Positions 50 to 14,137 of a stretch of DNA of 39,203 nucleotides are shown here, piece after piece (position 1 is the first letter of the stretch; every line of letters starts with the position of its first letter). The stretch is from UHGV virus genome UHGV-0043900; one strand, given 5' to 3'. The notes under the pieces were generated by a model. It did no database searches, was not told the DNA's origin, and worked only from the letters and a program-made list of their open reading frames with translations. The translations under genes were made by a program, and so were the position numbers. This DNA is from a virus.

Positions 50-2344
50 TCATAAAACCGTTTCATCCTTTGTGACGGACTCGTCGTTCTGAGCATCTTC
101 CACGTCTGCCGTAAATGCGCCGTCCACTGCCGACAACCGAATCCGGGCAACCGCCGTATTCGCCGCCATTTTCTGCAACAGCAGCAGGGAGAGCGGCGGC
201 AGCATATTGCCGTCGATGACCGATTCCAGCATCCTCGCGCCGTTTTCCGCGCGGGTGACGCGGCTCATGATTTCGTCCGTCACTTCCGGTTCTATAATCA
301 CCTCCGCGCCAAAGCGGCTGCGCAGCACGTTATCCAGGCGGGCCAGTTTCCCGGCAATGATGGTGGCGAGCGTCTCTTTCGACAGCGGCAGGTACGGCAC
401 CACTTCCATACGCGCCAGCAGGGCAGGTTTGAAGAAGTCGGCCAGCACCGGATACAGTACTTCCTGCATGGTTTCCGGGTCATCGGCATGCTCGACTATT
501 ACCTGGTAGCCGAGGTTGGACGTCAGGAAGAAGACGATATTTTTGCAGTCAATCAGGCGGCCTTCACCGTCTGCCATTTCGCCCTTATCGAACGCCTGGT
601 AGAACAGGTTGAGCACATCCGGGTGCGCTTTTTCCACTTCATCGAGCAGTACTACCGAGTAGGGTTTCTGGCGAATCGCTTCGGTCAGTACGCCGCCTTC
701 ACCGTAGCCAACGTAGCCCGGAGGCGAACCAATCAGTCGCGAGACGGTATGTTTCTCCTGGAACTCGGACATATTGATGGTGGTCAGGTACTGGCGACCG
801 CCGTAGAGCAGCTCTGCCAGTTGCAGGACGGTTTCAGTTTTACCCACGCCGCTGGGGCCAGCCAGCAGGAACGCGCCCAGCGGGCGTCCCGGACGGCGCA
901 GGTCGGCGCGTGCGGTCAGCAGGTGTTTGTGCAGGCTGGCAATCGCCAGGTCCTGGCCTTTGATGGTGTCGCCGAGCCATTTTGGCAGGTCGGTGATGAC
1001 CGACATTTCATTCTGCGACAGGCGGTTAAGCGGCACGCCGGTCCATTCGGCAATCACCGCCGCAATCTGTTTTTTATCGACGTGCGGGGAAACCAGCAAC
1101 CGGTCGTTATGCAGGGCGTCCAGTTCGGCAGTGAGATGTGCCAGACGTTGTACCGGGGAAACTGTTTCAGCGGTCTCTTCCGGCTGTTCTCTGTCGGCCT
1201 CATCAGCCGGTACGGCACCGGTATTATCCTGTTCTGACTCTGACTCTGGCTGCGTATCCTCCACGGTATCTGCGTCCGGCAACGGCGCCGCATCGTCCTC
1301 TGCCACGCCCAGTAACTGCTGGCGCAGCGCAATAATCTCCCGGACCAGCGTCTGCTGCTGGTGCCAGGCCGCTTCCAGTTCATCCAGCGCCGTCAGCGTT
1401 TCATCATACTGCACCAGCACCTCGGTCATCCGTGATGTGTCGGTACGCAGTCCGATGCGAAGCTCGCGCTCAAGCTGGCGAATTTCCGCCTCCTGCTGGT
1501 GGCTCAGAGTGGTCAGCGCCGAGATTTGCTTCGGCGGCGACGACAGGTTGATGGCCACACGGGCGCAGGCGGTATCCAGCACATCAATCGCTTTGTCCGG
1601 TAACTGACGCCCGGAGAGATAACGCTCGCTTAATGTCGCAGCGGCCTGCAAGGCGTCATCATCAATCAGCACGCCGTGAGACTGTTCATAGACCGCCGAC
1701 AGACCGCGCAGAATAATGGTGGCTTCGGCAGCGTTGGGTTCGCTGACCTTCACCAACTGGAAGCGGCGCGACAGGGCGGCATCTTTTTCGAAGTATTTTT
1801 TGTACTCGCTCCAGGTGGTGGCGGCGATGGTTTTCAGCTCGCCGCGCGCCAGCGCCGGTTTGAGCAGGTTGGAGATATCCAGCCCGCCCTGCTGGTTGCC
1901 CGCGCCAATCAGGGTATGTGCTTCGTCGATAAACAGAATGACCGGCACCGGGGAGGAAATGACCTCCGCCATCAGCCCTTTGAAACGTTTTTCGAATTCA
2001 CCCTTCACCGACGCCCCGGCCTGCAATGCGCCCAGGTCAAGGGTCATGATATCGGTGTTTTTCAGCTTGTCCGGCACCTGGCCTGCCACGATGCGCAGCG
2101 CCAGCCCTTCAATCAGTGCGCTTTTGCCCACGCCCGCTTCGCCCACCACCACCGGGTTGTTTTTACGGCGGCGGCAGAGAATGTCGATCATCAGGTCGAT
2201 TTCGTGGTCGCGGCACAGTACCGGGTCAAGCCTGCCGTTACGGGCGTCTGCGGTCATGTTTTTGGCATAGCGGGCAAGCAGGGTGTCAGAGGCGTCCGTC
2301 ATTGTGCCTGCGCCTTTACCGTCTGCATCCGGCTGATCAGACAT
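50..2344 (-). pseudogene. tssH: T6SS AAA+ ATPase ClpV/TssH, C-terminal ~760 codons; gene split by prophage insertion (host sequence ends ~2333)
   Basis: 764-aa ORF with two AAA+ modules (Walker A GEAGVGKS and GPSGVGKT) and ClpV-type motif FYQAFDKGEMADGEGR. It lacks the Clp N-domain, which lies at 38666-39153 on the same strand. First codons ATG-TCT-GAT are supplied by the prophage left end, with no obvious RBS. Confidence 0.85.
2328..2333. repeat. Target-site duplication, left copy (TCCGGC; 5 or 6 bp, ambiguous by one base)
   Basis: TCCGGC immediately precedes the TG terminus and recurs immediately after the CA terminus at 38666-38671. Both copies sit in the same clpV codon phase (CCG GAT). 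Confidence 0.5.
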
Positions 2345-2379
2345 GAGATAAATGAAGGGGGATCCGTGAGATAAATAAC
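2334..2379 (+). repeat. Prophage left terminal sequence with two putative transposase-binding sites
   Basis: TGATCAGACAT followed by GAGATAAAT at 2345-2353 and GAGATAAATAAC at 2368-2379, 23 bp apart. The right end carries the same arrangement in inverted orientation. Confidence 0.6.
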
Positions 2380-2456
2380 GAATTGGAGTGGGTTAACATG
2401 GGTTCTGGTGAACAGAACTGAAATTCTTTTTCGCTATACGATAGATAAGTCGGACA

Positions 2457-2486
2457 TTGAAATCATCCTTTCTGGCAACTTAGAAT
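2457..2486 (+). promoter_or_regulatory. Candidate sigma70-type promoter reading inward from the left end
   Basis: TTGAAA, 18-bp spacer, TAGAAT, about 45 nt upstream of the 2530 ATG. By-eye match only. Confidence 0.3.
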
Positions 2487-2529
2487 CGAGTTTGCTGAAA
2501 CATGACCCGTAACAAAAAGGATGATTCCA

Positions 2530-2691
2530 ATGACTACTCAAAACAATAAGCATGACAGCCTTGATTACTCAGAAAGGCCCAAAAGCAAGCACATCGTGAC
2601 GTTCGAGCGCGATTCCGGTAGAAAAGGAGAATCGTCTTCCTCTGCCAATAAAACCACTATGCCGGCAGCCCCTGCTCCAGGGAAAAAATAA
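2530..2691 (+). CDS. Small hydrophilic protein (53 aa), unknown function; below the ORF-track size cut-off
   Basis: ATG at 2530 preceded by AAGGA at a 9-nt spacing and a candidate promoter. Ends 3 nt from the stop of the convergent 2695-3327 gene. No recognisable motif. Confidence 0.3.
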   Translation: MTTQNNKHDSLDYSERPKSKHIVTFERDSGRKGESSSSANKTTMPAAPAPGKK

Positions 2692-2694
2692 ACA

Positions 2695-3327
2695 TCATTC
2701 ATCGTTCGTTGCACGAACGCGCCTGATCTCCACTCTGGCAATCTGATCTGCTGGAATATAGGTTGCCAGAGCTCCCCAGTACTTATCAACCACGCCTTTA
2801 TACTCTTCCCATTCGTTACTGCCTGAAGGGCTGCTGTGCGTGACGTAAAGAACCATATCGCCTTTATTCCCCAGGGTAAACGGACCGTTAGGCCACTCTT
2901 CAAAGTTCCCTGGCAGTCGTGACATCATACCGGAACCATCGCGAAGAATCACTCTGACCTCGGTAACGCTGAAGCCTGTTTGATCAAACATTGCCTGCCA
3001 TGCTGAGCTGGTATCGTCAGACCATGAAATATCATTATTCCACAGTAATCTGTACATCCATTTGCGACCGTACCTGCGCCACCACGCACCGCATGTAACG
3101 GCACACAGAAGTGCTGGTGGTGTTGCCAGCCAGGCATTCAGACCTGCCCACATAACTGCCTGGTAAGCCATCATTGCTGTCAGGCCAAAAATCAGCGAAG
3201 AAAAAGTCACCTCAATGGGCTTGTGGTGATCCTTCAGTCCCACATTCGCAATAAAATACCCAATATAGCCACTGGTCAGGGTCACCAGTGTTGCCCATGG
3301 CAGATTTAACAACGAAACGTCAAACAT
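2695..3327 (-). CDS. Membrane protein (three predicted TM helices plus ~110-aa soluble C-terminal domain), unknown function; last gene of the early arm
   Basis: ORF 2695-3405 with start reassigned to the ATG at 3327 (MFDVSLL...), preceded by AGGGAG. Hydrophobic segments LPWATLVTLTSGYIGYFIANVGL, IEVTFSSLIFGLTAMMAYQAVMWAGL and WLATPPALLCAVTCGAWW. No family recognised. Confidence 0.6.
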   Translation of the reverse strand: MFDVSLLNLPWATLVTLTSGYIGYFIANVGLKDHHKPIEVTFSSLIFGLTAMMAYQAVMWAGLNAWLATPPALLCAVTCGAWWRRYGRKWMYRLLWNNDISWSDDTSSAWQAMFDQTGFSVTEVRVILRDGSGMMSRLPGNFEEWPNGPFTLGNKGDMVLYVTHSSPSGSNEWEEYKGVVDKYWGALATYIPADQIARVEIRRVRATNDE

Positions 3328-3441
3328 ATTTTCTCCCTGCATCCTGAATACTAAAGAAAGAGCATAAAAAAAGCACGGTAAGGGGTCTACCGTGCTTTTA
3401 TACAATAAAGAGATTTTTGAAAGGACTTTAACAAGCAGGAA

Positions 3442-3840
3442 TTATCTGGATTTGTTAACGTCTTTCGTCTCCTCTGGCAGATCTTCATCAAACAACCTGC
3501 CCTGCATCCGATCCAGTTCTTCTTTTCTGACCCGCTTAACCACGCTGTAGACCCACTGAAGCGAAACACCAAACTTGCGGGCCAGTTCGTGGTGGTTGCG
3601 TCCGTTAAACTCCCTGAAGATTTCCCGGTCGCGCTGACTGACCTTCCATACCATGCCCATCGGGAAATAAACGTTTTGCCCGCCCCAGACCTGCATCATT
3701 CGGTTCGCGACGGCCTGACCAATCTGGTCGGCAATTGCGGGCTCAATATCAATAATCTCGCGAACGGTCTCAGAGGTATGCTGTGCCAGTTCCACCAGGA
3801 GTTCCGGCCCTTTACTTCGAAACTGATTCAGGTCGCTCAT
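3442..3840 (-). CDS. mor: Mor/C-family transcriptional activator (middle/late gene activator)
   Basis: 132 aa; C-terminal HTH region REIFREFNGRNHHELARKFGVSLQWVYSVVKRVR matches the Mor pattern; sits directly after the GemA-like gene as in Mu. Confidence 0.7.
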   Translation of the reverse strand: MSDLNQFRSKGPELLVELAQHTSETVREIIDIEPAIADQIGQAVANRMMQVWGGQNVYFPMGMVWKVSQRDREIFREFNGRNHHELARKFGVSLQWVYSVVKRVRKEELDRMQGRLFDEDLPEETKDVNKSR

Positions 3841-4264
3841 GTTTTACTCCCGCAGCTCTGCGCTGCCACTTCTTCAGTTTCTCAATAACACTGCTTGCCT
3901 GTTCAGTACTGAGCCAGCGCAGGGCGCTGATGCCCGTTTCCCGCTTGATCCACCGCGCTAATGCATTTTCTGAACGGTCACGAACAATGCCGGCAGCAGC
4001 CATTTCAAGCCATAGCGCACGGATTTTCCTGGACTGCGGATGGTTATCCAGCTGTAAACCGGAGCTGGCTTTTCCGGCAGGCTTAACGCGAAAGCCTTTC
4101 CTTTTCATGGATTCCAGCACGCAGTTTAGTTGTGTGGTATCCATTCCTTTGGTTGAGGCTTTACCGGTCAGCCCCTCTAACATCTGGCGGTAGGTGTCTT
4201 CATCCATACCCAGTTCATTACGGGCAATATGAATGAGCTGGATAAGACGTTGTTTAGTCATCAT
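3812..4264 (-). CDS. gemA: GemA-like protein (Mu gp16 / DUF1018 family)
   Basis: Motifs LIQLIHIARNELGMDEDTYRQML, KIRALWLEMAAAGIVRD and ALRWL...IEKLKKW typical of Mu gp16. Start set at ATG-ATG 4264 with AAAGGAG RBS. Confidence 0.75.
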   Translation of the reverse strand: MMTKQRLIQLIHIARNELGMDEDTYRQMLEGLTGKASTKGMDTTQLNCVLESMKRKGFRVKPAGKASSGLQLDNHPQSRKIRALWLEMAAAGIVRDRSENALARWIKRETGISALRWLSTEQASSVIEKLKKWQRRAAGVKHERPESVSK

Positions 4265-4469
4265 CGTTGCTCCTTTTACCTGCGCCACCGATATAATCGA
4301 CATATAAAGGAAGCGCCACAGGCCAGCACAGGAACATCACCGACCAGCTAATCCAGTAGCCGGCACCACTGTAACGTGAATAAAACCCTGAACGGCGCTG
4401 CAGTTCAGCAGTACACCAACCGACAAAACAATACCAGAACAGGGCACATACAACAGATTCAGCCGTCAT
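4254..4469 (-). CDS. Small membrane protein (~71 aa), unknown function
   Basis: Internal start of ORF 4254-4625 (MTAESVVCALFWYCFVGW...); two hydrophobic segments; short overlap with the upstream gene. Confidence 0.4.
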   Translation of the reverse strand: MTAESVVCALFWYCFVGWCTAELQRRSGFYSRYSGAGYWISWSVMFLCWPVALPLYVDYIGGAGKRSNDDD

Positions 4470-4689
4470 TCTGAATATCCCCCCAACTGATATGAATATT
4501 ACGGGCAGCAATGACTGGGTCGTTATTCCACCATGCACCTGACATATATTTTTCAACCTGTTCGCGTCCGGCAATAACACCAATTGTGATCCCCGGCCTG
4601 ACGTTCTTAAAAAAGGCGCGGGCAAAAAGGTATCTGGCAGATATTCGGCAGGCTTTTAATTTCCGGCTGTTACCTGATAACGTCATCAT
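4459..4689 (-). CDS. Hypothetical early protein (76 aa)
   Basis: ORF in the early operon with start overlapping the stop of the upstream gene (ATGA at 4686-4689). Confidence 0.4.
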   Translation of the reverse strand: MMTLSGNSRKLKACRISARYLFARAFFKNVRPGITIGVIAGREQVEKYMSGAWWNNDPVIAARNIHISWGDIQNDG

Positions 4690-5369
4690 CTGGCCTCCAG
4701 TTTCTGCTGTTCCCGCCCACTGACCGGTCGGTGCAGTCTGACGTTCTGCCCTTCTCGAAACCCCGCATAGCGCGAGGTGTCGCCATTGCGACTTCTTCCC
4801 GGTTTACGCGCCCTGGTGGTTTGCGTCTGCGGGTATTTATGTTCCAGCCACTGCTGCATCAGTTCACGTTCGTCATCGGTCAGGGCGAAGGACTGTATTT
4901 CACTGATAACGGCCAGCACCCAGCCTTCAGCAAACTGGTCTCCACGGCTGGTGCGGGTGGCGGTTTTTATTCTTTTGTTCTGTGTACTGATATACTGCTG
5001 ACGCGCCTTTTTCAGCTGACGGGCCAGCACTTCCCAGGTGTACGCAGCCAGTGCGGCCCGTTCCCGGTTGCCGTAGAACCCCACACCCGGATATGTGCCG
5101 GGGTGAATGATGGAGTTAACACCAAATGCCTCGCGGATGATGTTCATCAGGCCCAGCATGTAGCGCGGCGGACGGAGGCTGCCTGTCGGCCAGTAGTGAC
5201 TGATGGTTTCATCAATATCACTCATGGCGATGTCGGAATGTGTGATGCCGTGAACATCCATCAGTTTACGGGCGCGGCGCAGTGCCAGAGCAGCCTCATG
5301 CGGGTTGCCGGATGCTGCCAGCGCCAGCAACTTTTTCAGTTTCTCAATGTGCTTATCCTGGTCTGTCAT
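4686..5369 (-). CDS. Early protein with DUF2786-like N-terminus
   Basis: 227 aa; N-terminus KHIEKLKKLLALAASGNPHEAALALRRARKLMDVHGIT resembles the DUF2786 helical motif common in phage early regions. Recalled family, not searched. Confidence 0.5.
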   Translation of the reverse strand: MTDQDKHIEKLKKLLALAASGNPHEAALALRRARKLMDVHGITHSDIAMSDIDETISHYWPTGSLRPPRYMLGLMNIIREAFGVNSIIHPGTYPGVGFYGNRERAALAAYTWEVLARQLKKARQQYISTQNKRIKTATRTSRGDQFAEGWVLAVISEIQSFALTDDERELMQQWLEHKYPQTQTTRARKPGRSRNGDTSRYAGFREGQNVRLHRPVSGREQQKLEAR

Positions 5370-5566
5370 TGTTCAGTATCTCCGGTATTTTTTTGCTGTT
5401 CCCATGCCCGAACAGCGTCGGACAGCTCTTTCAGGCTGTATGCTGCTTTAAGCTTTACCCACAACCACTGCGTCACCACGTGGGTCAGCAGGGCAACCAG
5501 GGCGAATCCGGCGCAGATGCACACGGCTATACCAGTAAGCAGGAAAGCCCATACCACAATTTCCAT
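5366..5566 (-). CDS. Small single-pass membrane protein (~66 aa)
   Basis: Internal start of ORF 5366-5803 (MEIVVWAFLLTGIAVCICAGFALVALL...); the long upstream extension of that ORF overlaps the neighbouring gene in another frame. Confidence 0.4.
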   Translation of the reverse strand: MEIVVWAFLLTGIAVCICAGFALVALLTHVVTQWLWVKLKAAYSLKELSDAVRAWEQQKNTGDTEQ

Positions 5567-5573
5567 AATGGTG

Positions 5574-5957
5574 TCAGTCACCGGTACCTCCTGTGGTGGT
5601 CTGGTCAGGTGCGGCGTGTGTCCTGTGGTATTTCCTGAACCAGTGGTACAGGGCAGCCAGTTTTCTGTCGATAACTTCAGTTTCCCTGTTGAAGTATTCC
5701 TGTGCCTCTTTCTCCTCTTGCGGCGGCAGTTCGCCCGGCCCACACAGGGTGTTGTAAATCCACGCCATGCCGTTCCTGGCATCACCGGTGGCCCGCCACT
5801 CAATCACTGCAGCTTTCATGACAACCAGATTGCGCCCGAAGTACAGGTCCACCTCTTCAAATCTCTTGCGCAGGTATTCGTTTTCGTCTTCCAGTACCCG
5901 AATACGCTGTGCAACATCTTCAGGCGTCAGTTGTGGCGTCTGTTCAGTGCAGTTCAT
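5574..5957 (-). CDS. Hypothetical early protein (127 aa), predicted helical
   Basis: ORF in early operon; start overlaps the stop of the upstream gene. Confidence 0.5.
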   Translation of the reverse strand: MNCTEQTPQLTPEDVAQRIRVLEDENEYLRKRFEEVDLYFGRNLVVMKAAVIEWRATGDARNGMAWIYNTLCGPGELPPQEEKEAQEYFNRETEVIDRKLAALYHWFRKYHRTHAAPDQTTTGGTGD

Positions 5958-6256
5958 ATGATTTCTCCGGTGTATGTGACGCCCAGCCGTGCGGCAAGGC
6001 GTTCCAGTTTTTTCTGTTTGTGGAAGTCAATCAGTCGGTCCATCCCCTGAAGGCGCAACTGCTCTGTCATGATTTCCACGTCTGCCAGTTCTGCCGCGAG
6101 GTCACTTTCGCTGCCCTGTCCGTTCAGGTTGCGGGCAGCACAGGCTGCCAGTTCAGCGGCCTCTTCTGTCAGTTTCAGTGACTGTGCATCCGGCCCGAAA
6201 CGCTGCAGGGCCAGACGATAGAGGGCGGTGCGTGTGCGTATGGTGTTACGTGTCAT
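5954..6256 (-). CDS. Possible MazG-like nucleotide pyrophosphohydrolase (small all-helical NTP-PPase fold)
   Basis: 100 aa with pattern LKLTEEAAELAACAARN...SDLAAELADVEIMTEQL resembling the EExxE...ExxD...D metal-binding helices of MazG-like proteins. Motif-level only. Confidence 0.45.
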   Translation of the reverse strand: MTRNTIRTRTALYRLALQRFGPDAQSLKLTEEAAELAACAARNLNGQGSESDLAAELADVEIMTEQLRLQGMDRLIDFHKQKKLERLAARLGVTYTGEII

Positions 6257-6265
6257 GCCGCGCCC

Positions 6266-6538
6266 TCAGTGCTTCCGATCGACGGTGATGTTCAGGTTGC
6301 CTTCTGCAGTGGTTTCCATCCGGTACGGCACTTCGTGCTGTGCCGTATGGGTGAGTGTGTTCACCAGTACCTGCAGGGCAGCCTCCTTTCCGTTGGTCGC
6401 CACAATGGCCTGAGCGGCCATGCTGATTAGCGCCGTCAGGACGTGCTTCACATCAGTGAGGTCGCGGCATTCACACTCGTTGACATAGTGTTCAACAAGG
6501 AGTCGGGTGCGCTGTCGTGCTTCCTGTGGGGTAATCAT
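6266..6538 (-). CDS. Hypothetical early protein (90 aa)
   Basis: ORF in early operon with 4-nt start/stop overlap with the upstream gene. Confidence 0.5.
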   Translation of the reverse strand: MITPQEARQRTRLLVEHYVNECECRDLTDVKHVLTALISMAAQAIVATNGKEAALQVLVNTLTHTAQHEVPYRMETTAEGNLNITVDRKH

Positions 6539-6729
6539 TGCGCGTCCTCCCTGTCAGGGCGGGAGAATTCCATGACGGGCACGTCCGCCGAAAAATGCTG
6601 GCTGCAGTACGGACAGACCAGGGTGACACGTACTGCAGGTACGTGGTACTTACCGGACATCACGGCGATGGCGCTGTGAAAACGCAGGGCTGTTATATCC
6701 CTCTCGCACTGAATACATTTAAATATCAT
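6535..6729 (-). CDS. Small zinc-ribbon protein (CxxC...CxxC)
   Basis: 64 aa with Cys pairs C5/C8 and C39/C42 (KCIQCERD ... CPYCSQHF). Confidence 0.45.
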   Translation of the reverse strand: MIFKCIQCERDITALRFHSAIAVMSGKYHVPAVRVTLVCPYCSQHFSADVPVMEFSRPDREDAQ

Positions 6730-6826
6730 GATTTAATTCTCCTCTGTTTCCGGCGTGCAGAAGCCCACGGCGCTGACGCCGGAATAAAAAAGAAAATGTT
6801 TTTATTAAATAATTAACGTGGTGTGT

Positions 6827-7357
6827 TTACTGCACATCCTGTTCAAAAGGAATTATTGAAAAATCCTCAATATCGCTTTTTATGGTAATACCGGGAATAT
6901 TTTTCACAGCCTCTTTTTCATTCAGGATAGCGTCTTTATTTATTTCCTCTTTTACACGAATAAAGCGCTCAAGCCCCAGACGTCTCAGTAGTTCAATAAC
7001 ATTATCCGCCCCGCGAATGCTGACTGACGGTGGACGGTTTCGCCACTGCACCTCGCCAGTGGTGAGGTTAGCGAACTTCACCTTCCCGTTGCCGGTCAGT
7101 TCGTCACGGTGCGCCTCACACCATGTCTGGATACCGGACTGCAGTTCGGCCATGCGTTTTTTCAGGCTCTCGGTGAGCGGGGCATAACGAGCGGTGATAT
7201 CGCCAATGGCGTCATTCATTTCTGTTTCAGCCCTGACCAGTTCACGTTGTGCGTCACCGAGCAGTCTGATTCCCTCAATGACCTCTTCACGTGTCCCCGG
7301 CACCCAGAGTGCTGCTGCGGCCTTGATACGTTTTGCCCCTTTTGTACTTTTTGCCAT
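6827..7357 (-). CDS. gam: Gam-like host-nuclease inhibitor (Mu Gam / Ku-like DNA-end-binding protein)
   Basis: 176 aa, near-colinear with Mu Gam: KRIKAAAALWVP, GKVKFANLTTGEVQWRNRPPSVSIRG, GLERFIRVKEEINKDAIL, DFSIIPFEQ. Strong RBS AGGAGG. Confidence 0.85.
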   Translation of the reverse strand: MAKSTKGAKRIKAAAALWVPGTREEVIEGIRLLGDAQRELVRAETEMNDAIGDITARYAPLTESLKKRMAELQSGIQTWCEAHRDELTGNGKVKFANLTTGEVQWRNRPPSVSIRGADNVIELLRRLGLERFIRVKEEINKDAILNEKEAVKNIPGITIKSDIEDFSIIPFEQDVQ

Positions 7358-7384
7358 ATTTTATGACTCCTCCTGTTGTGCTGA

Positions 7385-7654
7385 TTACCACAGAGATTCC
7401 GGCCACACGACGCGACAGCCGTGCAGTTCGAAAACGCCCTGACGGAAATGTCCCCTGTGGTCATGACCGGTATACAGATAACTGGCTTTCCCCTGCTCAA
7501 GCATGCGCATGCAATGCGCACTCCTGGAAACGCGAATGACAGGTTTGTTACCCCTGATGGTGATGCTTTGTACATCCGTGTTCGTCGCCTTAAGCGCCAT
7601 AATGGCTGACAGCACTTTGCTGATTTGCTGGTTGATACCTGTGGTGGATTTCAT
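7385..7654 (-). CDS. Hypothetical early protein (89 aa) directly downstream of B
   Basis: ORF with AAGGGG RBS; occupies the position of kil-type genes in Mu-like phages. No motif recognised. Confidence 0.5.
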   Translation of the reverse strand: MKSTTGINQQISKVLSAIMALKATNTDVQSITIRGNKPVIRVSRSAHCMRMLEQGKASYLYTGHDHRGHFRQGVFELHGCRVVWPESLW

Positions 7655-7656
7655 TA

Positions 7657-8823
7657 TTAAACCCCTTTGACAACGTCAGCGTTGACCTGTGGAACCCCGA
7701 TTTCAGCAGCCAGATTCATGGCGGCTATTACCAGGTTACTGACGGCCAGCGGATACAGCAGGCTGACCCTGTTTTTACGATGACTTCCCGGATTGCTCAG
7801 GCGGGCACGTATGGCATCCACTGCGCTGGCGTCCATAATGTCCGTCAGTTGTTTACCGGCCCGTTGCAGTTTGAACGTCAGAAACTCTTCAAGGTGATTG
7901 TCCAGAGGCAGAAGTTCGACCACCTCACAGCGCTGAACGACTTCACGGACTTCCATATTGCGTTCAGACAGTTTTGTCGCCAGTTCCGGCTGGCCAATCA
8001 GCACGATGGACAGCAGTTTTTTGAAACCGGACTCCAGCTCAAAAAAGCGTTTGAGGTGTTTCAGTGTCGGAATGGGCAGGCTGTGGGCCTCCTCAATCAC
8101 CAGAACGTGGCTGAACCCCGCCTGGCTGCTGTCTTTCAGGACGCGATGCAACTGGCGAAAGCGGGCGTCCTGACTGCGTCTGATGCTTTCCAGTGGTGCA
8201 ATGGTACTGATAATGGCTTCGGCAATCGCTGCTGCCTTCAGAGTTTTCCCTTTCACATCGTTGTCTTCCATAGCGATGACGTATGGCTCGATAACAATTA
8301 CCGGCGCATTCTCGCGGTTGATTCGTTCAGTCAGGTCGCGGCGCAGCGTGGATTTGCCCGCACCGGACTCACCGATGACGGCCATAAACCCACCATGACG
8401 GGCTGTCTGGTACAGCGCTTCACGCACATAGCGGATGTCCGGGGTGGTGAACACATCATCAGAACCCTGCATGGCTTCGTCGGCGAACGGGTCACGGAAA
8501 AGACCAAACGCTTTTTTGGTTGCTGGAAATAACACCTGTTTTTTGAGTAACATATTCTCTTCCTCACTGAGGCTCGTTTTATCTGTGGTACCCGCTGTAC
8601 GGGGCGTGGCCGCGCCCTGTACAGCATCAAAACTCTTCGTTGTATCAATCCCCTGACTTTCCAGCCAGGACGCAAGACGCCGGCGCACTTCTCCGGGGCG
8701 GGTGCGGGGCCACGCGTTATGATTCACAATCTGGGCCAGCGTGGCCTCAGAAACATCGACAGCTCTCGCCACCACCGCCTGTGGGATACGGGCCTCTTTC
8801 AGTTGCTGCTTCAGTACCAGCAT
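7657..8823 (-). CDS. DNA transposition protein B (AAA+ ATPase, MuB-like) with N-terminal HTH extension
   Basis: Walker A GESGAGKST and Walker B-like HVLVIEEAH; lies immediately downstream of the transposase. Start preferred at ATG 8823 (GAGGAGG RBS) over the GTG at 8862 used by the ORF track. Confidence 0.8.
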   Translation of the reverse strand: MLVLKQQLKEARIPQAVVARAVDVSEATLAQIVNHNAWPRTRPGEVRRRLASWLESQGIDTTKSFDAVQGAATPRTAGTTDKTSLSEEENMLLKKQVLFPATKKAFGLFRDPFADEAMQGSDDVFTTPDIRYVREALYQTARHGGFMAVIGESGAGKSTLRRDLTERINRENAPVIVIEPYVIAMEDNDVKGKTLKAAAIAEAIISTIAPLESIRRSQDARFRQLHRVLKDSSQAGFSHVLVIEEAHSLPIPTLKHLKRFFELESGFKKLLSIVLIGQPELATKLSERNMEVREVVQRCEVVELLPLDNHLEEFLTFKLQRAGKQLTDIMDASAVDAIRARLSNPGSHRKNRVSLLYPLAVSNLVIAAMNLAAEIGVPQVNADVVKGV

Positions 8824-8833
8824 GTTTTCCTCC

Positions 8834-10603
8834 TCAGTTGCCGTTAACAATGCTGATAACACTGCTGCGGACCGGCGTGGTCAGCGTGGCCATGACTTCA
8901 TCCAGTGCGGCTTCCGGTACGCCGTCCGGGTACTGTGCCGTTAACTGGCGGTAATGTTCCGGCGTCCAGGTAAGGCCGTTGGCGCTGAACTTATCGCGCA
9001 GGGCTTTCGCGGCCTCCACATGAGTCATGGGACGTTGTTCAGTGCGCGGCCCGCGTACGTCAGAGGCCTGACCACGCTTCGGCATATAGGCCGGAAGTGT
9101 GGCGTCATCAATATGTTTATACGGGTCAAGTCGTCCGCCGAACGGCAGTGCCTTCGCCTTGCGTGCGGCAGCTGCATCTGCGGCGTTGTCTGTACCGGTG
9201 ACCAGCGCTTCGGTTTCTTTTGCCGCCATCTGCGCCGGGGTTTCCGGCAGGGCTTTGTAACTTTCGCCAAATACCGCCGCGCCTTCAGCAAAGCCAAACT
9301 CGTTCTTTCTGACCTCTTCGACCAGGAAGAACGTCTCGTGGCCGTCCTCACCGGTCAGAACCACCTGTGCCACATCGCTGCGCCACGGGTTACGGGTAAT
9401 CATCAGTTTTTCACCGACCAGTACGCCCGGTACCGTTGATACGTCAAATTCAGTGCCCCGGAACGAGACACGAAGTTTTGGCGTGACTTTGCGGAGTTCT
9501 GGTGCCGCCACAGCCAGTTCACGACATACCTCAACGGAAGGCGCTTTTTTCAGCTGCTCAGCAGTAATCTTCAGCCAGATATCCGTGCGGGTTTTACCGT
9601 GGCGGCTGTGAACAGCCGTGGCGTTAAAGTGGCTGCGCCATTTCGCGGCCAGCGCGTTGAGTTCTTCCAGACTGTGAACCGGCCGGAACTTCAGACCCGG
9701 CTCCAGCTTGCGTTCGATAATGTCACGCGCCTTTTCCACCTGTCCGGTGGCGCGGGCGTTATGCGGCCTGTGCGCTATCAGGTCGATGCCCAGTGAGCGG
9801 CACATGTTTTTCGTCATACCCGCGGTGTTCGCCGAACCGGGGTCGAGATAGAGTATTTTCGGCACGCCGTGCAGCACGTCTGCGCCACCGCGCTCCTGCA
9901 TGGCGTTGATAAGCACAGAACACAGGTTCTCACCGGATTCCGCACCCGTCACATACTCAACGTAAATCCAGCCGCTGGCATGGTCGGTAATCTCGTAACT
10001 CCACACGCGGTCACTGGCGATACGGGCAAGGTTAGCGGGCTTGTTCTTGTAGAATTTCGCGCTGTCCATCACCTGCAGCCCTTTATGTCCATTGCTCAGG
10101 TAGTAAAGCGTGCATAGTGAGGCGTCAATCTGCCAGACATGATTGGGGTGCAGACTGGCCACTTCGGTATGCGGTGCAGGGGCATCCAGTTGTTCCGGGT
10201 GCAGGCCATAGTTACGCAGGGCACGACTGATGGCATCTTCGGACAACGGGAAAAACTCACCGGTGGTTTCATCTGTTCTGCCTGCGGAGATAAAGCCGTT
10301 AGCCCGCAGGGTTTCCACTGCATCCGCGATGGAATAAAGACGCTTACCGTTCTTGCGGGTGGCCTCACGCAGTGTGGCAGATATCAGCGCGGCTTCGTCG
10401 CGGGTCAGGGCGCTGCGCCCGGCATCGGCGCGTTTTTTGCGTTTATCAGTCACAGAGACCTCCTTCAGCCTGCGCAGCAGAGTGGCGCGGGACATGCCAA
10501 GTTCAGCACAGGCAGCGTCGTATATTGCACCGCGTTTACCATGCCCCGCGTCACGTGCCGCGCGGGCGACATAAACCAGTCGTTCAGTCAGGGCAGCATT
10601 CAT
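8834..10603 (-). CDS. DDE transposase A (rve/integrase-core superfamily, transposable-phage type)
   Basis: 589 aa; N-terminal HTH region and a central integrase-like catalytic core (HVWQIDASL ... YLDPGS ...). GGAGG RBS. Paired with the B ATPase. Confidence 0.85.
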   Translation of the reverse strand: MNAALTERLVYVARAARDAGHGKRGAIYDAACAELGMSRATLLRRLKEVSVTDKRKKRADAGRSALTRDEAALISATLREATRKNGKRLYSIADAVETLRANGFISAGRTDETTGEFFPLSEDAISRALRNYGLHPEQLDAPAPHTEVASLHPNHVWQIDASLCTLYYLSNGHKGLQVMDSAKFYKNKPANLARIASDRVWSYEITDHASGWIYVEYVTGAESGENLCSVLINAMQERGGADVLHGVPKILYLDPGSANTAGMTKNMCRSLGIDLIAHRPHNARATGQVEKARDIIERKLEPGLKFRPVHSLEELNALAAKWRSHFNATAVHSRHGKTRTDIWLKITAEQLKKAPSVEVCRELAVAAPELRKVTPKLRVSFRGTEFDVSTVPGVLVGEKLMITRNPWRSDVAQVVLTGEDGHETFFLVEEVRKNEFGFAEGAAVFGESYKALPETPAQMAAKETEALVTGTDNAADAAAARKAKALPFGGRLDPYKHIDDATLPAYMPKRGQASDVRGPRTEQRPMTHVEAAKALRDKFSANGLTWTPEHYRQLTAQYPDGVPEAALDEVMATLTTPVRSSVISIVNGN

Positions 10604-10606
10604 TGG

Positions 10607-11518
10607 TTATGCCTCCAGCCCGTTAATCTGTGGCGTCGGCTCAGTCAGCCATGAAGGCGCTGCATTGCCTGTTGGCTCGTCCGGCAGGTCAAATGTGGAG
10701 CGCAGGCTACGCGCTGTGCTTTCCAGTTGACAGACCAGGCCTGCCATGAAATCTCTGGGGGTATCAATCATGTTTTCAGCACAATATGCGCACAGTGTCT
10801 CAAAAGCGCTGGACAGTCGAACGGCGATAGCAGATTCCGCCTCAACCGCTAATGCTGTTACTTCCGCCCGCAGCTTCTTAACCTCCTCATCAGGCTCAGG
10901 CGGCTGAATACGGGATTTCTTCTCCAGTCTGGTGGAGAGTGAGTCTATTTTTTCATTTTTGTCGGCGAGTACGCGCTGTTGTGCTGCGTTGGTTTCGCGC
11001 GCTTCGCGCAGGGCCTGACGCAATTCACGTACTGACATGCGATCAACATCGTCAAGCGTCAGTCCTGCGACTGTGCCGCCGTCGGCCAGTTCAGCAAGGT
11101 CGTCGTCATCTTCAGCAACAAGTTCAAATAATTTTGCCTTACCTAAAAGCGACAACGTTGTCGCTTTTGGCTCTAGTTTTGGTGAAAGGTATTTCAAAGA
11201 TGCTTTCATCATTCGTTGTGCTGCGCGCACATGCAGACCAAGTTGTTCTTCTACAATTCCAACAAAGTCCCCGTGTGGTTCATTTTCTTTGAGAATAATA
11301 AGTCGTTTACCTGCTTCCAGCATGGCCTCAGCGCTCTGTGCCATATAAAACCGAGCCTCATGAACTATGCGATCACGCTCATAGGGCTGACCATCGCCAA
11401 ACTGCTGCATGATCTCCATGCGATGCTGTGTCATGGCGTTCAGACTGACATTGAGATCATCCGACAGCGGTACCTCGGCGTTCAGTTCAGTGTTAATCGG
11501 TGATTTGGTGCGTCCCAT
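10607..11518 (-). CDS. Conserved transposable-phage early protein (possibly DUF3102-like)
   Basis: 303 aa, helical and acidic; sits between the regulators and the transposase; AAGGAG RBS. Family name recalled, not verified. Confidence 0.55.
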   Translation of the reverse strand: MGRTKSPINTELNAEVPLSDDLNVSLNAMTQHRMEIMQQFGDGQPYERDRIVHEARFYMAQSAEAMLEAGKRLIILKENEPHGDFVGIVEEQLGLHVRAAQRMMKASLKYLSPKLEPKATTLSLLGKAKLFELVAEDDDDLAELADGGTVAGLTLDDVDRMSVRELRQALREARETNAAQQRVLADKNEKIDSLSTRLEKKSRIQPPEPDEEVKKLRAEVTALAVEAESAIAVRLSSAFETLCAYCAENMIDTPRDFMAGLVCQLESTARSLRSTFDLPDEPTGNAAPSWLTEPTPQINGLEA

Positions 11519-11528
11519 TTATTACTCC

Positions 11529-11837
11529 TTACAAACGACTACCTGAAATGACACGTTGGTTGATTTCGTTAATGCGATCCTGTGCACGTGCCATCTCGTT
11601 ACTGTGGGCCATAGCGATCTGCAGTAACTGGATGCCCGGCGCGAAACGCCCGTTTTCCAGTTTCAGGGCCAACCCTTCTTCAATGAGGGTGTTGAGTGCC
11701 CGGTTGATGTTTGCCGGTGACTCGTGCAGTGCTGCCGCCAGTTCACCGTTGGAAATACCGTTCAGGGCATGACCGCGCAGCGCTTTGAGTACCCGGAGGA
11801 TGCGACTGCCGGAGCTTGAAACATTCGTCTTACTCAT
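11529..11837 (-). CDS. Winged-helix DNA-binding protein (IclR-like HTH), putative early regulator
   Basis: Segment ILRVLKALRGHALNGISNGELAAALHESPANINRALNTLIEEGL resembles an IclR-type N-terminal HTH. Start set at the second ATG (11837), which has better RBS spacing. Confidence 0.5.
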   Translation of the reverse strand: MSKTNVSSSGSRILRVLKALRGHALNGISNGELAAALHESPANINRALNTLIEEGLALKLENGRFAPGIQLLQIAMAHSNEMARAQDRINEINQRVISGSRL

Positions 11838-11889
11838 CTGCATACCTCTTTTGCGATATGTGATAACCTTTTACAAAGACTCAAAATCT

Positions 11890-12078
11890 TCAGGCTGCCT
11901 GAGCTGTTGATTTCAGCCCCAACTTCACGGCGATTTCATGGGATTTACCGTAACGGGCTTTGGTCTGCCCATTGAGAACGCGGTATACCTCATTGCGGTT
12001 GTAGCCGTTTTCTTCTGCCCAGCGGGTGAAGGTGATCCCGCGCTGGCGGAAGAGAGCTTTGACTTGTTCTGCAGTCAT
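11890..12078 (-). CDS. Ner-like small DNA-binding protein (Ner/Nlp family); first gene of the early operon
   Basis: 62 aa with the Ner layout VKALFRQRGITFTRWAEENGY...GKSHEIAVKLGL. Divergent from the repressor gene. RBS AAAGGAGA. Confidence 0.6.
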   Translation of the reverse strand: MTAEQVKALFRQRGITFTRWAEENGYNRNEVYRVLNGQTKARYGKSHEIAVKLGLKSTAQAA

Positions 12079-12178
12079 CGTTGTCTCCTTTGTTGATGCA
12101 ATGATGTTTGCCTTATGTGTGATAGATTATGGTGCAGATTATCTCACCAGTCAACTTAAAGAGTGCAGAAAAACTCAC
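12079..12178. promoter_or_regulatory. Divergent early-promoter/operator region between the Ner-like gene and the repressor
   Basis: 100-bp AT-rich intergenic region between divergent regulators, with direct repeats of AGATTAT 12 bp apart within GTGATAGATTATGGTGCAGATTATCTCAC. Confidence 0.45.
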
Positions 12179-12517
12179 ATGATCGGGTTACGTATTAAAG
12201 AAGAAAGAGAGCGTCTATCTCTTACACAGCAAGGGTTGGCTGATGCTATAGGTGTGGCAAAGAGAACTTTCATTGATTGGGAAAAAGATCGCACTTCTCC
12301 TACTGCAGTGCAGTTATCTGCACTATCAGAAATCGGTGTAGATATTTTGTATGTAGTTACTGGGGTGCGGAGTCAGCCTGTTGTTGCACCTTATGTGTCA
12401 CAAGAAAAGAAAGAGTTAATGGATGCATTCGACGAAATGAGCCCCGAACAACGGAGGGCAATTCTTGAGGTCGGCAAAGTCTTCATTCAACCCAAACCAA
12501 GCAAACTCGCAGGCTGA
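12179..12517 (+). CDS. Putative prophage repressor (XRE-family HTH)
   Basis: Internal ATG of ORF 12026-12517; HTH LSLTQQGLADAIGVAKRTFIDWEKDRTSP; divergent from the early operon. GC-poor relative to neighbours. Confidence 0.65.
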   Translation: MIGLRIKEERERLSLTQQGLADAIGVAKRTFIDWEKDRTSPTAVQLSALSEIGVDILYVVTGVRSQPVVAPYVSQEKKELMDAFDEMSPEQRRAILEVGKVFIQPKPSKLAG

Positions 12518-12603
12518 TTTTGACCTGGACACAAAGGGCGCGTGGTTGATCTGGATGCTTTCAGAAAACATCGCCAGTGACATAGTGGAAGTTGTTTGGT
12601 TTA

Positions 12604-12637
12604 CCGGAAAGCATTGTGCTTTCCGGTTTTGTTTCAG
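12604..12637 (+). terminator. Rho-independent terminator between convergent repressor and Dam genes
   Basis: 10-bp perfect stem CCGGAAAGCA/TGCTTTCCGG with 3-nt loop, followed by TTTTGTTT. Confidence 0.5.
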
Positions 12638-13398
12638 AAGTTGCAGATTACCAGTTCACGGCGCGGCGTGGGTTTCCCCGCCAGACTGTAGTTGATATTC
12701 ACCGTCTGTATGTTCAGTTCAGTGAACACCCGACGCATCTGCGGAATGTCATTCACCGAGATAATCATCTTTCCTCTGATGCACCGTGCCAGTTCTGCGA
12801 GTAGTGTGTAGTTCTCTTCAGGAAAATCCACACCATAGCCTTCCGTCCCCAGATAGGGCGGATCACAGTAGAACAGCGTGTGCGGACGGTCATAACGCTT
12901 AATGCACTGGTGCCAGTCCATGTGTTCTATCACCGTTCTGGAAAGCCGCAGGTGTGCCGCTGACAGTTCTTCTTCAATCCGGAGCAGGTTGAAGCGTGGC
13001 GGGGAGGTGGTGGAGGTGCCGAAGCTGTGCTCTGCCACCTTGCCCCCAAACGCCTGCTTCTGGAGGTAGTAGAACCGTGCCGCACGCTGGATATCCGTCA
13101 GTGTTTCTTCCGGGGTGATCTGCTGCCATTTGTAGATCTGCCGGCTAACCAGCGCCCATTTGAATTGGCGGACAAATTCTTCCAGATGATGCTTTACTAC
13201 CCGATACAGATTTACCAGTTCACCGTTGATATCGTTAATGACTTCGATCTTGCTGGGAGTCTTGAGAAAATAAAGTGCTGCTGCGCCGCAGAATGGCTCC
13301 ACATAGCAGGTATGGAGTGGGAACTGGGGCAGAATGTGTTTGGCCAGACGACGTTTTCCCCCAATCCAGGGGACGATGGGTAAAGATTGTTCTTTCAT
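12634..13398 (-). CDS. Orphan DNA adenine methyltransferase (Dam/D12-class N6-adenine MTase)
   Basis: N-terminal IVPWIGGKRRLAKHIL, FCGAAAL AdoMet motif and catalytic DPPY (LFYCDPPYLGTEGYG). Start set at the internal ATG 13398 (MKEQSLPIVPW). No restriction partner evident. Confidence 0.8.
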   Translation of the reverse strand: MKEQSLPIVPWIGGKRRLAKHILPQFPLHTCYVEPFCGAAALYFLKTPSKIEVINDINGELVNLYRVVKHHLEEFVRQFKWALVSRQIYKWQQITPEETLTDIQRAARFYYLQKQAFGGKVAEHSFGTSTTSPPRFNLLRIEEELSAAHLRLSRTVIEHMDWHQCIKRYDRPHTLFYCDPPYLGTEGYGVDFPEENYTLLAELARCIRGKMIISVNDIPQMRRVFTELNIQTVNINYSLAGKPTPRRELVICNF

Positions 13399-13445
13399 TA
13401 TCTGTAAGCCTTTTTCATTAGATGAAAATGCGATAGGCTTCCCTT

Positions 13446-13457
13446 GTTCTCGAGAAC
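13446..13457. promoter_or_regulatory. Perfect 12-bp palindrome GTTCTCGAGAAC in the Dam / paralog-1 divergent intergenic region (candidate operator)
   Basis: The duplicated cassette carries a different perfect 12-bp palindrome at the equivalent position (14081-14092), so dyad symmetry is preserved despite sequence change. Confidence 0.35.
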
Positions 13458-13500
13458 GGAAGAGCCTCGGTTGACTCACAGCTCATACCTGTAAGTTGAT

Positions 13501-13550
13501 GACTCGCCTTGTGTTCGCTGCACAAGGTGAGTCGCTCTTTTCATGTTATT
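13501..13550 (+). terminator. Strong hairpin plus U-rich tract upstream of paralog 1 (terminator or attenuator-like element)
   Basis: 13-bp stem GACTCGCCTTGTG/CACAAGGTGAGTC (one G-U pair), 7-nt loop, then GCTCTTTTCATGTTATTTG. The cassette copy at 14138-14181 has a different stem with the same architecture. Confidence 0.45.
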
Positions 13551-13592
13551 TGCATATTTCATGGGCGACAATTAAAGGGAGTTACTAATACC

Positions 13593-13973: not shown

Positions 13974-14033
13974 TATCGCAAGGCAGCGTTTGCCACCAAT
14001 CCATGGAACGATGGGTAATGTCTGCGTTTTCAT
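13932..14033 (-). pseudogene. Remnant 5' end of a second Dam methylase gene (about 20 conserved codons)
   Basis: Reverse strand encodes MKTQTLPIVPWIGGKR, homologous to the start of the intact Dam (MKEQSLPIVPWIGGKRR), then diverges into the 3' end of paralog 1 and stops after 33 codons. Confidence 0.55.
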
Positions 14034-14080
14034 AATCTGTAAACATTTTACAATTATTAAAAATATGGCAGGCTAGTCTG

Positions 14081-14092
14081 GTCTCGCGAGAC
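14081..14092. promoter_or_regulatory. Perfect 12-bp palindrome GTCTCGCGAGAC (candidate operator of the duplicated cassette)
   Basis: Positional equivalent of GTTCTCGAGAAC at 13446-13457, with the same flanking conserved block CCTCGGT-G-CTCACAGC. Confidence 0.35.
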
Positions 14093-14137
14093 TGACTGAA
14101 CCTCGGTCGGCTCACAGCCACTTCTGTGGGACGATGG

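Follow-up and report, generated by a model that had tools for sequence, protein, structure and literature searches.

The window analyzed here (i.e., the whole 39,203-base stretch of DNA) carries a prophage inside the Escherichia coli gene tssH, and a 9-base motif occurs twice near each end of this prophage. The locus thus raises three questions: where exactly the element begins and ends, which kind of transposable phage it represents, and what recognizes the paired motifs.

Boundaries of the prophage and the interrupted host gene

The left end of the element opens with TGATCA at position 2334, and the right end closes with GCATCA at position 38665 (TGATGC when read inward). The complement of the left TG is 3'-CA, the point at which cleavage by a transposase would be expected. 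The element, its termini, and the flanking host features are as follows.

2334..38665, + strand: complete BcepMu/B3-type transposable prophage (36,332 bp; TGATCA...GCATCA), with boundaries as in the adeP copy described below
2334..2335, + strand: left terminal TG, invariant in 48 distinct left ends of the B3/BcepMu family
38664..38665, + strand: right terminal CA-3'; GCATCA closes all of the right ends read
2328..2333, no strand: left copy of the target-site duplication, TCCGGC, in host tssH (sequence read; single-copy empty site known)
38666..38671, no strand: right copy of the target-site duplication, TCCGGC (sequence read, frame, and empty site)
50..2333, - strand: C-terminal part of tssH, the interrupted host gene (type VI secretion ATPase)
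38666..39153, - strand: N-terminal part of tssH, the interrupted host gene

When the two flanks were joined with a single TCCGGC, many E. coli genomes contained the resulting empty site in tssH, with 100% identity across 316 nt. Removal of the prophage together with 6 bp restored a tssH open frame of at least 937 amino acids, whereas removal together with 5 bp shifted the frame. The initial annotation had placed TG...CA termini at 2334 and 38665 with TCCGGC outside each of them, and all of these coordinates were correct; both the empty site and the independent insertions described in the next section agree with them. We conclude that a transposable prophage of approximately 36.3 kb lies inside E. 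coli tssH, with its exact ends at 2334 and 38665. In the strain from which the window derives, this type VI secretion ATPase gene is inactivated by the prophage.

Length of the target-site duplication

The direct repeat flanking the prophage can be read in the window as up to 8 bp long (CATCCGGC at 2326-2333 and at 38664-38671) because the last CA of the element matches the host bases preceding the duplication, and the length of the duplication is therefore not fixable from the window alone. The termini were defined on the basis of eight insertions with both ends read and eight further left junctions. Seven of the former are insertions of this prophage or of its relatives at loci other than tssH (i.e., adeP, gspF, phnP, kefF, otsA, rfaH, and flgJ), and all seven began and finished at bases identical to those in the window. 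The duplication was exactly 6 bp in six of them, with mismatches on both sides outside the 6-bp repeat, and 6 or 7 bp in the remaining one (L006). Read as 6-bp sequences, the duplications of the eight insertions were TCCGGC, GCTGCA, TCGGGT, CCTCGC, TCCTGT, TCCAGC, GCTCGC, and ACAGGC. The target-site duplication is 6 bp. Of the two lengths that had been allowed for in the initial annotation (5 or 6 bp), the longer one is supported by the tssH frame and by the other insertions, and the shorter one fails on the frame.

Paired 9-base motifs at both ends

Each end contains two copies of the motif GAGATAAAT, at the following positions.

2345..2353, + strand: L1 core, GAGATAAAT (element positions 12-20), where the family left-end alignment is most conserved
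2368..2376, + strand: L2 core, GAGATAAAT (element positions 35-43), 23 bp after L1
38646..38654, - strand: R1 core, GAGATAAAT (positions 12-20 inward from the right end)
38624..38632, - strand: R2 core, GAGATAAAT (positions 34-42 inward), 22 bp from R1

These are the only exact copies in the 39,203 bases, two per end and inverted between the ends. Shuffled sequences contained 0.14 copies on average, and none of 100 shuffles reached four. Element position 12 (i.e., 11 bp in) is where the first site starts at either end, and the starts of the two sites are 23 bp apart at the left end and 22 bp apart at the right end; an arrangement of this kind, with a first site 11 bp in, a second site 22 to 23 bp further, and inversion at the right end, had been described earlier, and every position was exact. 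Together with the preceding T, the L1 repeat reads TGAGATAAAT (2344-2353), and the right repeat unit extends to 18 nt (38617-38634 versus 38639-38656; 83% identity). The conserved portion of each presumed 22- to 23-bp unit amounts to only about 10 to 11 bp.

Allowing one mismatch added no site near either end and yielded a total of nine matches in the window, which is not above chance (4.99 expected); at the same stringency, no third copy was found within 4 kb of either end. The degenerate form GMGATAWWT had five matches inside the prophage (at 13635, 18428, 20936, 31454, and 37758), and the core by itself is thus not confined to the ends.

Conservation of the ends across the family

When related prophages were searched for the end motif, BcepMu, B3, and 48 left ends from other Proteobacteria proved to have both sites where the window has them, in a common layout of a TG terminus followed by G[AC]GATAA[AT]T at 12-20 and again at 35-43. 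The left-end alignment comprised 48 distinct ends from 80 loci, for which the transposases were 50 to 94% identical. Information in this alignment peaked at the TG and at the two sites, while the spacers and flanks were unconserved and the 10 bases outside the left TG carried no information. At both ends, BcepMu and B3 align position for position (TG, 9 bases, G[AC]GA[AT]A[AT][AT]N at 12-20, then the site again 22 to 23 bp on).

Both sites were also present in 24 right ends from IMG/VR (11 distinct). At the position of R2, the right ends of the family carry G[AC]GATAAAT at a spacing of 22 or 23 bp. Apart from L006 (GCGATAAAC) and L110 (GCGATAAAA), the other right ends read from E. coli and IMG/VR carry GCGATAAAT as the counterpart of R1.

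Several of these properties are known from described phages. The ends of BcepMu and phiE255 carry imperfect direct repeats of 23 bp, which are possibly recognized by the transposase (PMC2920897), TG...CA termini are characteristic of BcepMu-like prophages (PMC2628397), and the 6-bp duplication of B3 has been called a footprint of the B3/Tn552-family transposase (PMC8705779). Given that TG-CA ends, a 6-bp duplication, and 23-bp repeats are already in the literature, binding of the transposase to the end repeats appears to be well supported by comparison. The GAGATAAAT pairs are the described, conserved end repeats of the BcepMu/B3 family and most likely bind the transposase, an assignment that we infer from their position, symmetry, and conservation. 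No reports of binding or footprinting for the B3/BcepMu family were found in the searchable literature. The paired sites had initially been attributed to the transposase of a Mu-type element; the attribution to a transposase fits the comparative evidence from BcepMu, B3, and the 48 left ends, but the type is that of B3/BcepMu, not of Mu proper.

The conservation of a 9-bp core across transposases that are only 50% identical suggests that ends and transposases may be interchangeable between genera, which could aid the building of mini-transposon tools. A role for Dam through the GATC in the left terminus TGATCA was also considered and was set aside, as the terminus sequence is not conserved in the B3/BcepMu family.

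Gene content and transposase

The early genes of the prophage lie on the - strand (about 2565-11843) and the late genes on the + strand (about 14439-38414), and gene content and order match those of BcepMu. Homologs of Mor, GemA, and Gam are encoded, as are several small helix-turn-helix (HTH) proteins (e.g., 11529-11843 and 12026-12517). Two early genes bear directly on transposition.

8834..10603, - strand: transposase TnpA (589 aa; DDE/rve, B3/BcepMu/Tn552 type), the presumed reader of the four sites (Pfam rve, E = 2.7e-9)
7657..8862, - strand: AAA+ ATPase of the ExeA family, a putative TnpB/MuB analogue directly downstream of the transposase (Pfam AAA_22, E = 3.3e-20)

The RefSeq start of the ATPase is equivalent to position 8823; the protein is named "ExeA family protein" in an identical prophage copy and is collinear with BcepMu gp08. 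TnpA was 68.5% identical to BcepMu gp09 over 98% of the protein and 56.5% identical to the B3 transposase over 100% (tblastn). Its only Pfam match at E ≤ 0.01 was rve, with no Mu-transposase family, and its NCBIfam matches (IS481 and IS21) were all below threshold. We conclude that the element is a B3/BcepMu-type transposable phage with a Tn552-related rve transposase and is not Mu proper.

Sequence searches of the PDB with TnpA, either as a single query or as a 24-member profile, matched the retroviral-integrase-like catalytic core only (TnsB, E = 0.05) and were uninformative on the DNA-binding domains. An AlphaFold2 model of TnpA based on a 28-sequence alignment was of low confidence (mean pLDDT, 59.5; pTM, 0.35), with pLDDT below 50 over most of the catalytic core. 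Foldseek with this low-confidence model ranked TnsB first (7svw_B, E = 2.8e-6), followed by IS21 IstA, with TM-scores of 0.13 to 0.20 overall and equally low values of 0.13 to 0.16 for TnsB; this match supports the mechanism proposed below weakly.

Proposed transposition mechanism and alternative explanations

The explanation that we favor, with a probability of roughly 85%, is B3/BcepMu-type DDE transposition into tssH with a 6-bp staggered cut, in which each end would provide two transposase-binding units of about 22 to 23 bp with inward-pointing GAGATAAAT cores. The staggered cut in the target would give rise to TCCGGC on both sides. The binding units would be adjacent, with cores at 12-20 and 34/35-42/43 at both ends, and four TnpA protomers would occupy L1, L2, R1, and R2 through N-terminal HTH domains. 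These protomers would pair the ends in a transpososome comparable to that of MuA at L1/R1/R2 and of TnsB at its 22-bp repeats, and the protomers at the terminal sites would nick at 3'-CA and join the ends to the target 6 bp apart. The adjacent ExeA-type AAA+ ATPase may act in target capture in the manner of MuB and TnsC. We infer the identity of the site-binding protein, the 2 + 2 stoichiometry, and the role of the ATPase.

The 9-base motifs might instead be bound by a different protein (e.g., a phage HTH regulator or a host architectural protein), in which case the transposase would recognize the terminal bases only. The prophage encodes the small HTH proteins listed above, and there are further conserved subterminal motifs that may bind other factors (see below). 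However, in all relatives examined, the sites are inverted and separated from each cleavage point by a constant 11 bp; their geometry is the same as that of the transposase sites of Mu, Tn7, and Tn552, and one would look for the operators of a regulator around the early promoter region (about 11.8 to 12.1 kb) rather than symmetrically at the termini. We consider a different binder improbable. Less probable again is that the repeats are packaging (pac) signals for the terminase and not transposition sites. Headful packaging of Mu-like phages begins at the left end, but a pac site is needed at one end, whereas these motifs are equally conserved at both ends and inverted; moreover, the phased GGGA boxes found at left ends only (see below) are a better pac candidate.

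Two other explanations are refuted by the comparative data, and we give them next to no weight. In the window alone, the junction can be read as that of a genuine Mu-family (Muvirus) prophage that starts one base earlier (C at 2333) and has a 5-bp duplication, because base 2333 is the same as base 38671. Besides the frameshift that a 5-bp duplication would imply in tssH, the multicopy comparison stands against this, in that six of the seven other insertions show an unambiguous 6-bp repeat, L006 is compatible with 6 or 7 bp, and the base preceding TG differs among the prophage copies; nor does a transposase matching Pfam rve only, at 68.5% identity to BcepMu gp09, fit Muvirus. In view of the shortness of the motif, the four copies might be suspected of having arisen by chance or of being left over from an old duplication, with no function today, but four were found where 0.14 were expected, and their positions are conserved at 50% transposase identity while the spacers have fully diverged.

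Additional subterminal motifs

Directly after L2, left ends of the family contain four GGGA boxes with an 11-bp phasing (positions about 46, 57, 68, and 79), and these phased boxes are absent from the right ends of the family. In the E. coli lineage of the window, the left array is partly decayed, with two GGGT boxes left. Right ends of the enterobacterial relatives carry a conserved subterminal motif of their own (TTTCA..ATTTG.AAAAGAATT), of which BcepMu has a looser version; nothing similar was seen in the 120 bases read of the B3 right end. No description of the GGGA array or of the right-end motif was found in searchable papers, and a literature search for the pac site of B3-type phages yielded nothing relevant. 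It is conceivable, if somewhat doubtful, that the ends hold more than the four putative transposase sites and that the GGGA array or the right-end motif could make them functionally different. The left GGGA array might be a recognition array for the terminase (pac); alternatively, either element might serve an accessory protein as its binding array.

Spread and target choice in E. coli

A near-identical copy of the prophage resides in adeP (NZ_CP054662), with the same boundaries and three SNPs in 36,332 bp; the very ends found in the window have therefore moved recently. The left end was detected in 113 of 5,426 complete E. coli genomes. At least 14 different E. coli insertion loci were read, including tssH, adeP, gspF, phnP, kefF, otsA, rfaH, flgJ, flgA, clbG, phoX, a GGDEF gene, sfaA, and gspL. 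Within the duplicated target, C was present at position 2 in 11 of 16 cases and G at position 5 in 12 of 16. A strict target rule of N-C-N-N-G-N, suggested by the first eight duplications, was abandoned after eight more left flanks left only this bias, and left-end flanks across the wider family showed no conservation. A literature search on phage PhiKM, the closest phage record, returned nothing relevant.

The main value of these results lies in annotation, as they define exactly where a transposable prophage that is widespread in E. coli begins and ends. The ends of B3/BcepMu-type prophages are often missed by prophage finders, and a portable end signature (TG, 9 bases, G[AC]GATAA[AT]T, 13 to 14 bases, the motif repeated, and a 6-bp duplication) could help in locating them.

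Comparison with known systems

The window prophage shares with Mu a transposable temperate lifestyle, TG...CA ends, many insertion sites, homologs of Mor, GemA, and Gam, and, presumably, several sites of about 22 bp per end that are read by a DDE transposase with an ATPase helper; relatives of the window prophage additionally carry a Gin-like invertase and an invertible tail-fiber segment. In Mu, each end contains three sites (L1-L3 and R1-R3), and L1 and L2 are set apart, whereas the window prophage has two contiguous sites per end. Its transposase lacks the match to a Mu-transposase family noted above, and transcription of its early genes runs away from the late genes. The duplication generated by Mu is 5 bp (PMC8705779), compared with 6 bp here.

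Among transposons, Tn7 offers a parallel in TnsB, the best structural match of the low-confidence TnpA model, which binds 22-bp repeats at TG...CA ends. Tn7 has a 5-bp duplication and 3 + 4 sites. The Tn552 transposase reportedly footprints two directly repeated 23-bp motifs per end, and Tn552 duplications are said to be 6 to 7 bp. Both Tn552 and Tn7 differ from the window prophage in being transposons rather than phages, and no sequence similarity beyond the catalytic core was detectable with HMMER.

The Pseudomonas phage B3 (Beetrevirus), whose TnpA is related to the Tn552 transposase (PMC8705779), resembles the window prophage in its transposase (56.5% identical), TG...CA ends, and 6-bp duplication (PMC8705779). 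It also has two sites per end, at 12-20 and 34/35-42/43, and its spacings (left, 23 bp; right, 22 bp) are identical to those in the window. B3 differs in being a siphovirus with other late genes and in having more degenerate cores (GAGAAATAC and GCGATAAAG on the left, GCGAAATTT and GCAATAAAT on the right).

In BcepMu and phiE255, the transposases are 68.5 to 69.4% identical to TnpA of the window; genes from Mor and GemA to the ExeA-type ATPase and rve transposase lie on one strand, and lysis, head, and P2-like tail genes lie on the strand opposite the transposase. Their ends are likewise TG...CA, with two repeats per end at 12-20 and 35-43. These phages differ from the window prophage in their host (Burkholderia, versus E. 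coli) and in their termini (TGAA, versus TGAT), while the window prophage has no right-end acyltransferase, carries a D12 adenine methylase, and shows a weaker run of GGGA boxes after L2. The cores of BcepMu are GAGATATTT/GCGATATTT on the left and GCGATATTT/GCGATAAAT on the right, with a right spacing of 23 bp, whereas the window prophage has four identical cores (GAGATAAAT) and a right spacing of 22 bp. The understanding of transposition is unchanged by these comparisons, and the prophage represents a clear but ordinary example of a known family.

Ends of the element and their paired sites

The prophage in the window has a short direct repeat on either side, and each of its ends carries two copies of the same 9-mer. 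The following features were read from the sequence.

2328-2333 and 38666-38671: TCCGGC, direct repeat flanking the element
2334: left end of the element, starting TGATCAGACAT
38665: right end of the element, closing ...GCGCCGCATCA (inward, TGATGCGGCGC)
2345 and 2368, + strand: GAGATAAAT, left sites L1 and L2
38646 and 38624, - strand: GAGATAAAT, right sites R1 and R2

The repeat, the termini, and the 9-mer positions are all as described in the initial annotation. In an exact search, GAGATAAAT had four copies in the 39,203 bases and none outside the two ends (chance expectation, 0.14 copies; 0 of 100 shuffles reached four). Copies with one mismatch were not enriched in the window, and none lay near either end. 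The first site begins at position 12 of the element on the left as on the right, and the start-to-start spacing from the first to the second site is 23 bp on the left and 22 bp on the right. On the left, the repeat unit reads TGAGATAAAT; its counterpart at the right end spans 18 nt at 83% identity. The degenerate site pattern GMGATAWWT occurs nine times in the window (1.4 expected), counting five internal matches (13635, 18428, 20936, 31454, and 37758), all of which are unpaired single copies of the ...ATATTT type.

Insertion site and target-site duplication

A - strand open reading frame (ORF) (50..2344) crosses out of the left junction, and another (38644..39153) enters the right junction. 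Removal of 2334-38671 (i.e., the prophage and one TCCGGC) leaves one uninterrupted reading frame of 937 aa or more. In the empty-site comparison suggested with the original proposal of these termini, many complete E. coli genomes carried a prophage-free tssH that matched the reconstructed site over 316 nt at 100%. The insertion thus splits tssH, a type VI secretion ATPase gene, into 50-2333 and 38666-39153 (- strand), and has therefore probably inactivated the T6SS cluster of the host strain. The prophage was at the tssH site in none of the complete E. coli genomes of the collection.

Given that the flanking repeat may be read as up to 8 bp long (CATCCGGC), or as a shorter one if the junction is shifted, the duplication length cannot be fixed from the window by itself; it is settled by other copies. 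The left end is present at many loci in 113 complete E. coli genomes. Seven other insertions were read at both junctions, and all had identical termini with a 6-bp repeat flanking each.

adeP: GCTGCA
gspF: TCGGGT
phnP: CCTCGC
kefF: TCCTGT
otsA: TCCAGC (the preceding base matches too, giving 6 or 7 bp)
rfaH: GCTCGC
flgJ: ACAGGC

Because the bases beside the repeat mismatch in most of these insertions, 6 bp is exact there, and the same first T was found at eight more E. coli left junctions. The choice between 5 and 6 bp, previously left open, is thus decided in favor of 6. The adeP copy, from the mouse E. coli strain IGC_RcoliRes_1.1, differs from the window prophage by three substitutions across 36,332 bp (window 2334-38665 versus 1001-37332 of locus L001), at 37239, 37838, and 37871, all within tail-fiber genes. 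Since this nearly identical copy occupies another locus and is flanked by another duplication, the ends of the window prophage have been used, and the phage has been mobile, recently.

Among 16 E. coli sites (including the window), duplication position 2 was C in 11 (binomial P = 3e-4) and position 5 was G in 12 (P = 4e-5). This palindromic N-C-N-N-G-N preference recalls the N-Y-S-R-N of Mu; left-end flanks from the wider family did not show it.

Conservation of the sites in relatives

The paired sites recur in BcepMu and B3, as follows.

BcepMu, left end: TGAAGAGAGGT-GAGATATTT-14 nt-GCGATATTT
BcepMu, right end, inward: TGAAGCGCGGC-GCGATATTT-14 nt-GCGATAAAT
B3, left end: TGAGAGAGAGT-GAGAAATAC-14 nt-GCGATAAAG
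B3, right end, inward: TGTAGCGCGGC-GCGAAATTT-13 nt-GCAATAAAT

BcepMu and B3 have the layout of the window at both ends, and in B3 the spacing (23 bp on the left, 22 bp on the right) agrees as well. A transposase scan (one genome per species) gave 80 loci with 50 to 94% identity, spanning Enterobacterales, Burkholderiales, Neisseriales, Pseudomonadales, and other orders. From these, 55 left ends were recovered and aligned with that of the window (56 in total; 48 distinct). The 10 bases beyond the element carry no information and TG is invariant; a strong peak, T-GAGATAAAT (positions 11 to 20), is followed by an unconserved spacer and a second peak, G[AC]GATAA[AT]T (positions 35 to 43). The search for the end motif in related prophages, as had been proposed, thus recovered the pair as the conserved positions of the 48 distinct left ends. 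The IMG/VR right ends (n = 24; 11 distinct) read TGATGCGCCGC-GCGATAAAT-13/14 nt-G[AC]GATAAAT. The right ends of the other E. coli copies follow this pattern, whereas that of the window, in which both sites are GAGATAAAT, is a rarer variant. The last ~60 nt of one IMG/VR contig (L101; IMGVR_UViG_3300018478_000110) are Illumina adapter (AGATCGGAAGAGCGTCGTGTAGGGAAAGAGTGT), an assembly artifact in the public record.

Identity of the element

The early region (- strand) encodes a 589-aa protein with the integrase core rve as its sole Pfam match, an AAA+ ATPase directly downstream that carries an ExeA family annotation, and homologs of Gam, GemA, and Mor. The late region (+ strand), in which the head genes are Mu-like and the tail genes P2-like, is separated from the early region by helix-turn-helix (HTH) regulators together with a D12 adenine methylase. 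Compared with the transposases of other phages, that of the element shows 98% identity for Escherichia phage PhiKM, 93% for Klebsiella phage KP12, 68.5 to 69.4% for the Burkholderia phages BcepMu and phiE255, and 56.5% for Pseudomonas phage B3. The BcepMu gene order is collinear with the prophage, and all the defining features of the B3/BcepMu family that could be tested were found. Mu proper was rejected on three of its defining features: the duplication is not 5 bp, no MuA-type domains were found, and the ends do not have three sites each. We conclude that the element is a transposable prophage like BcepMu rather than Mu proper.

In most E. coli relatives, the right end is preceded by an invertible tail-fiber segment and a Gin-like serine recombinase. 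The window has a rare variant without this invertase module, in which 36802-38665 holds a short right end together with a fixed tail fiber and its assembly gene; this right end is shared with only one complete E. coli genome (NZ_CP054662), versus 113 with the left end.

Other features near the ends

GGGA boxes follow L2 directly in the 48 distinct family left ends, at approximately positions 46, 57, 68, and 79 (11-bp period; loci L010-L088, positions 44 to 82 from the end). In the window counterpart (2379-2415), only GGGT at 2390 and 2400 is kept. No such boxes occur at the right ends of BcepMu, B3, or the relatives from E. coli and IMG/VR. The array may serve pac/terminase, or an accessory protein that makes the two ends different.

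Right ends of enterobacterial relatives carry a subterminal motif, TTTCA..ATTTG.AAAAGAATT (inward, ~55 to 80 bp from the end); the window has AATTCTTTTTCAA at 38587-38599. AATTCTTTTTC also occurs near the left end (2422-2432), just past a terminator-like hairpin (2401-2419). As both copies lie on the + strand, they are direct rather than inverted repeats. A perfect 13-bp inverted repeat (38430-38442/38457-38469) lies just past the tail-fiber assembly gene, and a 20-nt inverted repeat (2455-2474/2513-2532; 90% complementary) near the left end flanks a promoter-like site ahead of a small + strand ORF.

GATC is found within the left terminus TGATCA (2335-2338) and in GGATCC between L1 and L2 (2360-2365), and the D12-class adenine methylase gene is at 12634-13479 (-). 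Any role for Dam methylation is speculative, because the family does not conserve the sequence of the terminus.

Proposed transposition mechanism and comparison with known systems

Sites at a fixed distance from the cleavage points, inverted between the ends, and kept amid drift are the signature of transposase sites of the Mu/Tn7/Tn552 class. The paired 9-mers were confirmed as an observation, and their proposed role as transposase sites is supported by position, inversion, and conservation in relatives. Most likely, four protomers of the 589-aa transposase (TnpA) would bind L1, L2, R1, and R2 and synapse the ends; TnpA would then nick at the terminal CA-3' and join the ends to target DNA with a 6-bp stagger, the adjacent AAA+ ATPase bringing the target. 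The established part of this mechanism consists of DNA-level facts; TnpA binding and stoichiometry are what we infer. PDB sequence searches with the transposase detected the catalytic core and nothing beyond. A low-confidence structure model (mean pLDDT, 59.5) predicts that the N-terminal domains (residues 1-50 and 65-145) are helical and that a beta-barrel follows the core. In the PDB, it best matches the strand-transfer complex of TnsB (7svw_B; E = 2.8e-6) and IS21 IstA, which is weakly suggestive of the proposed mechanism.

The Tn552 transposase footprints on two 23-bp direct repeats per end. BcepMu-like prophages that have an rve transposase are characterized by TG...CA termini (PMC2628397), and the 6-bp duplication of B3 has been called the footprint of a B3/Tn552-family transposase, that of Mu being 5 bp (PMC8705779). 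The ends in the window are thus a clean new example of an already described kind: the element operates as Mu does, yet belongs to the B3/BcepMu family.
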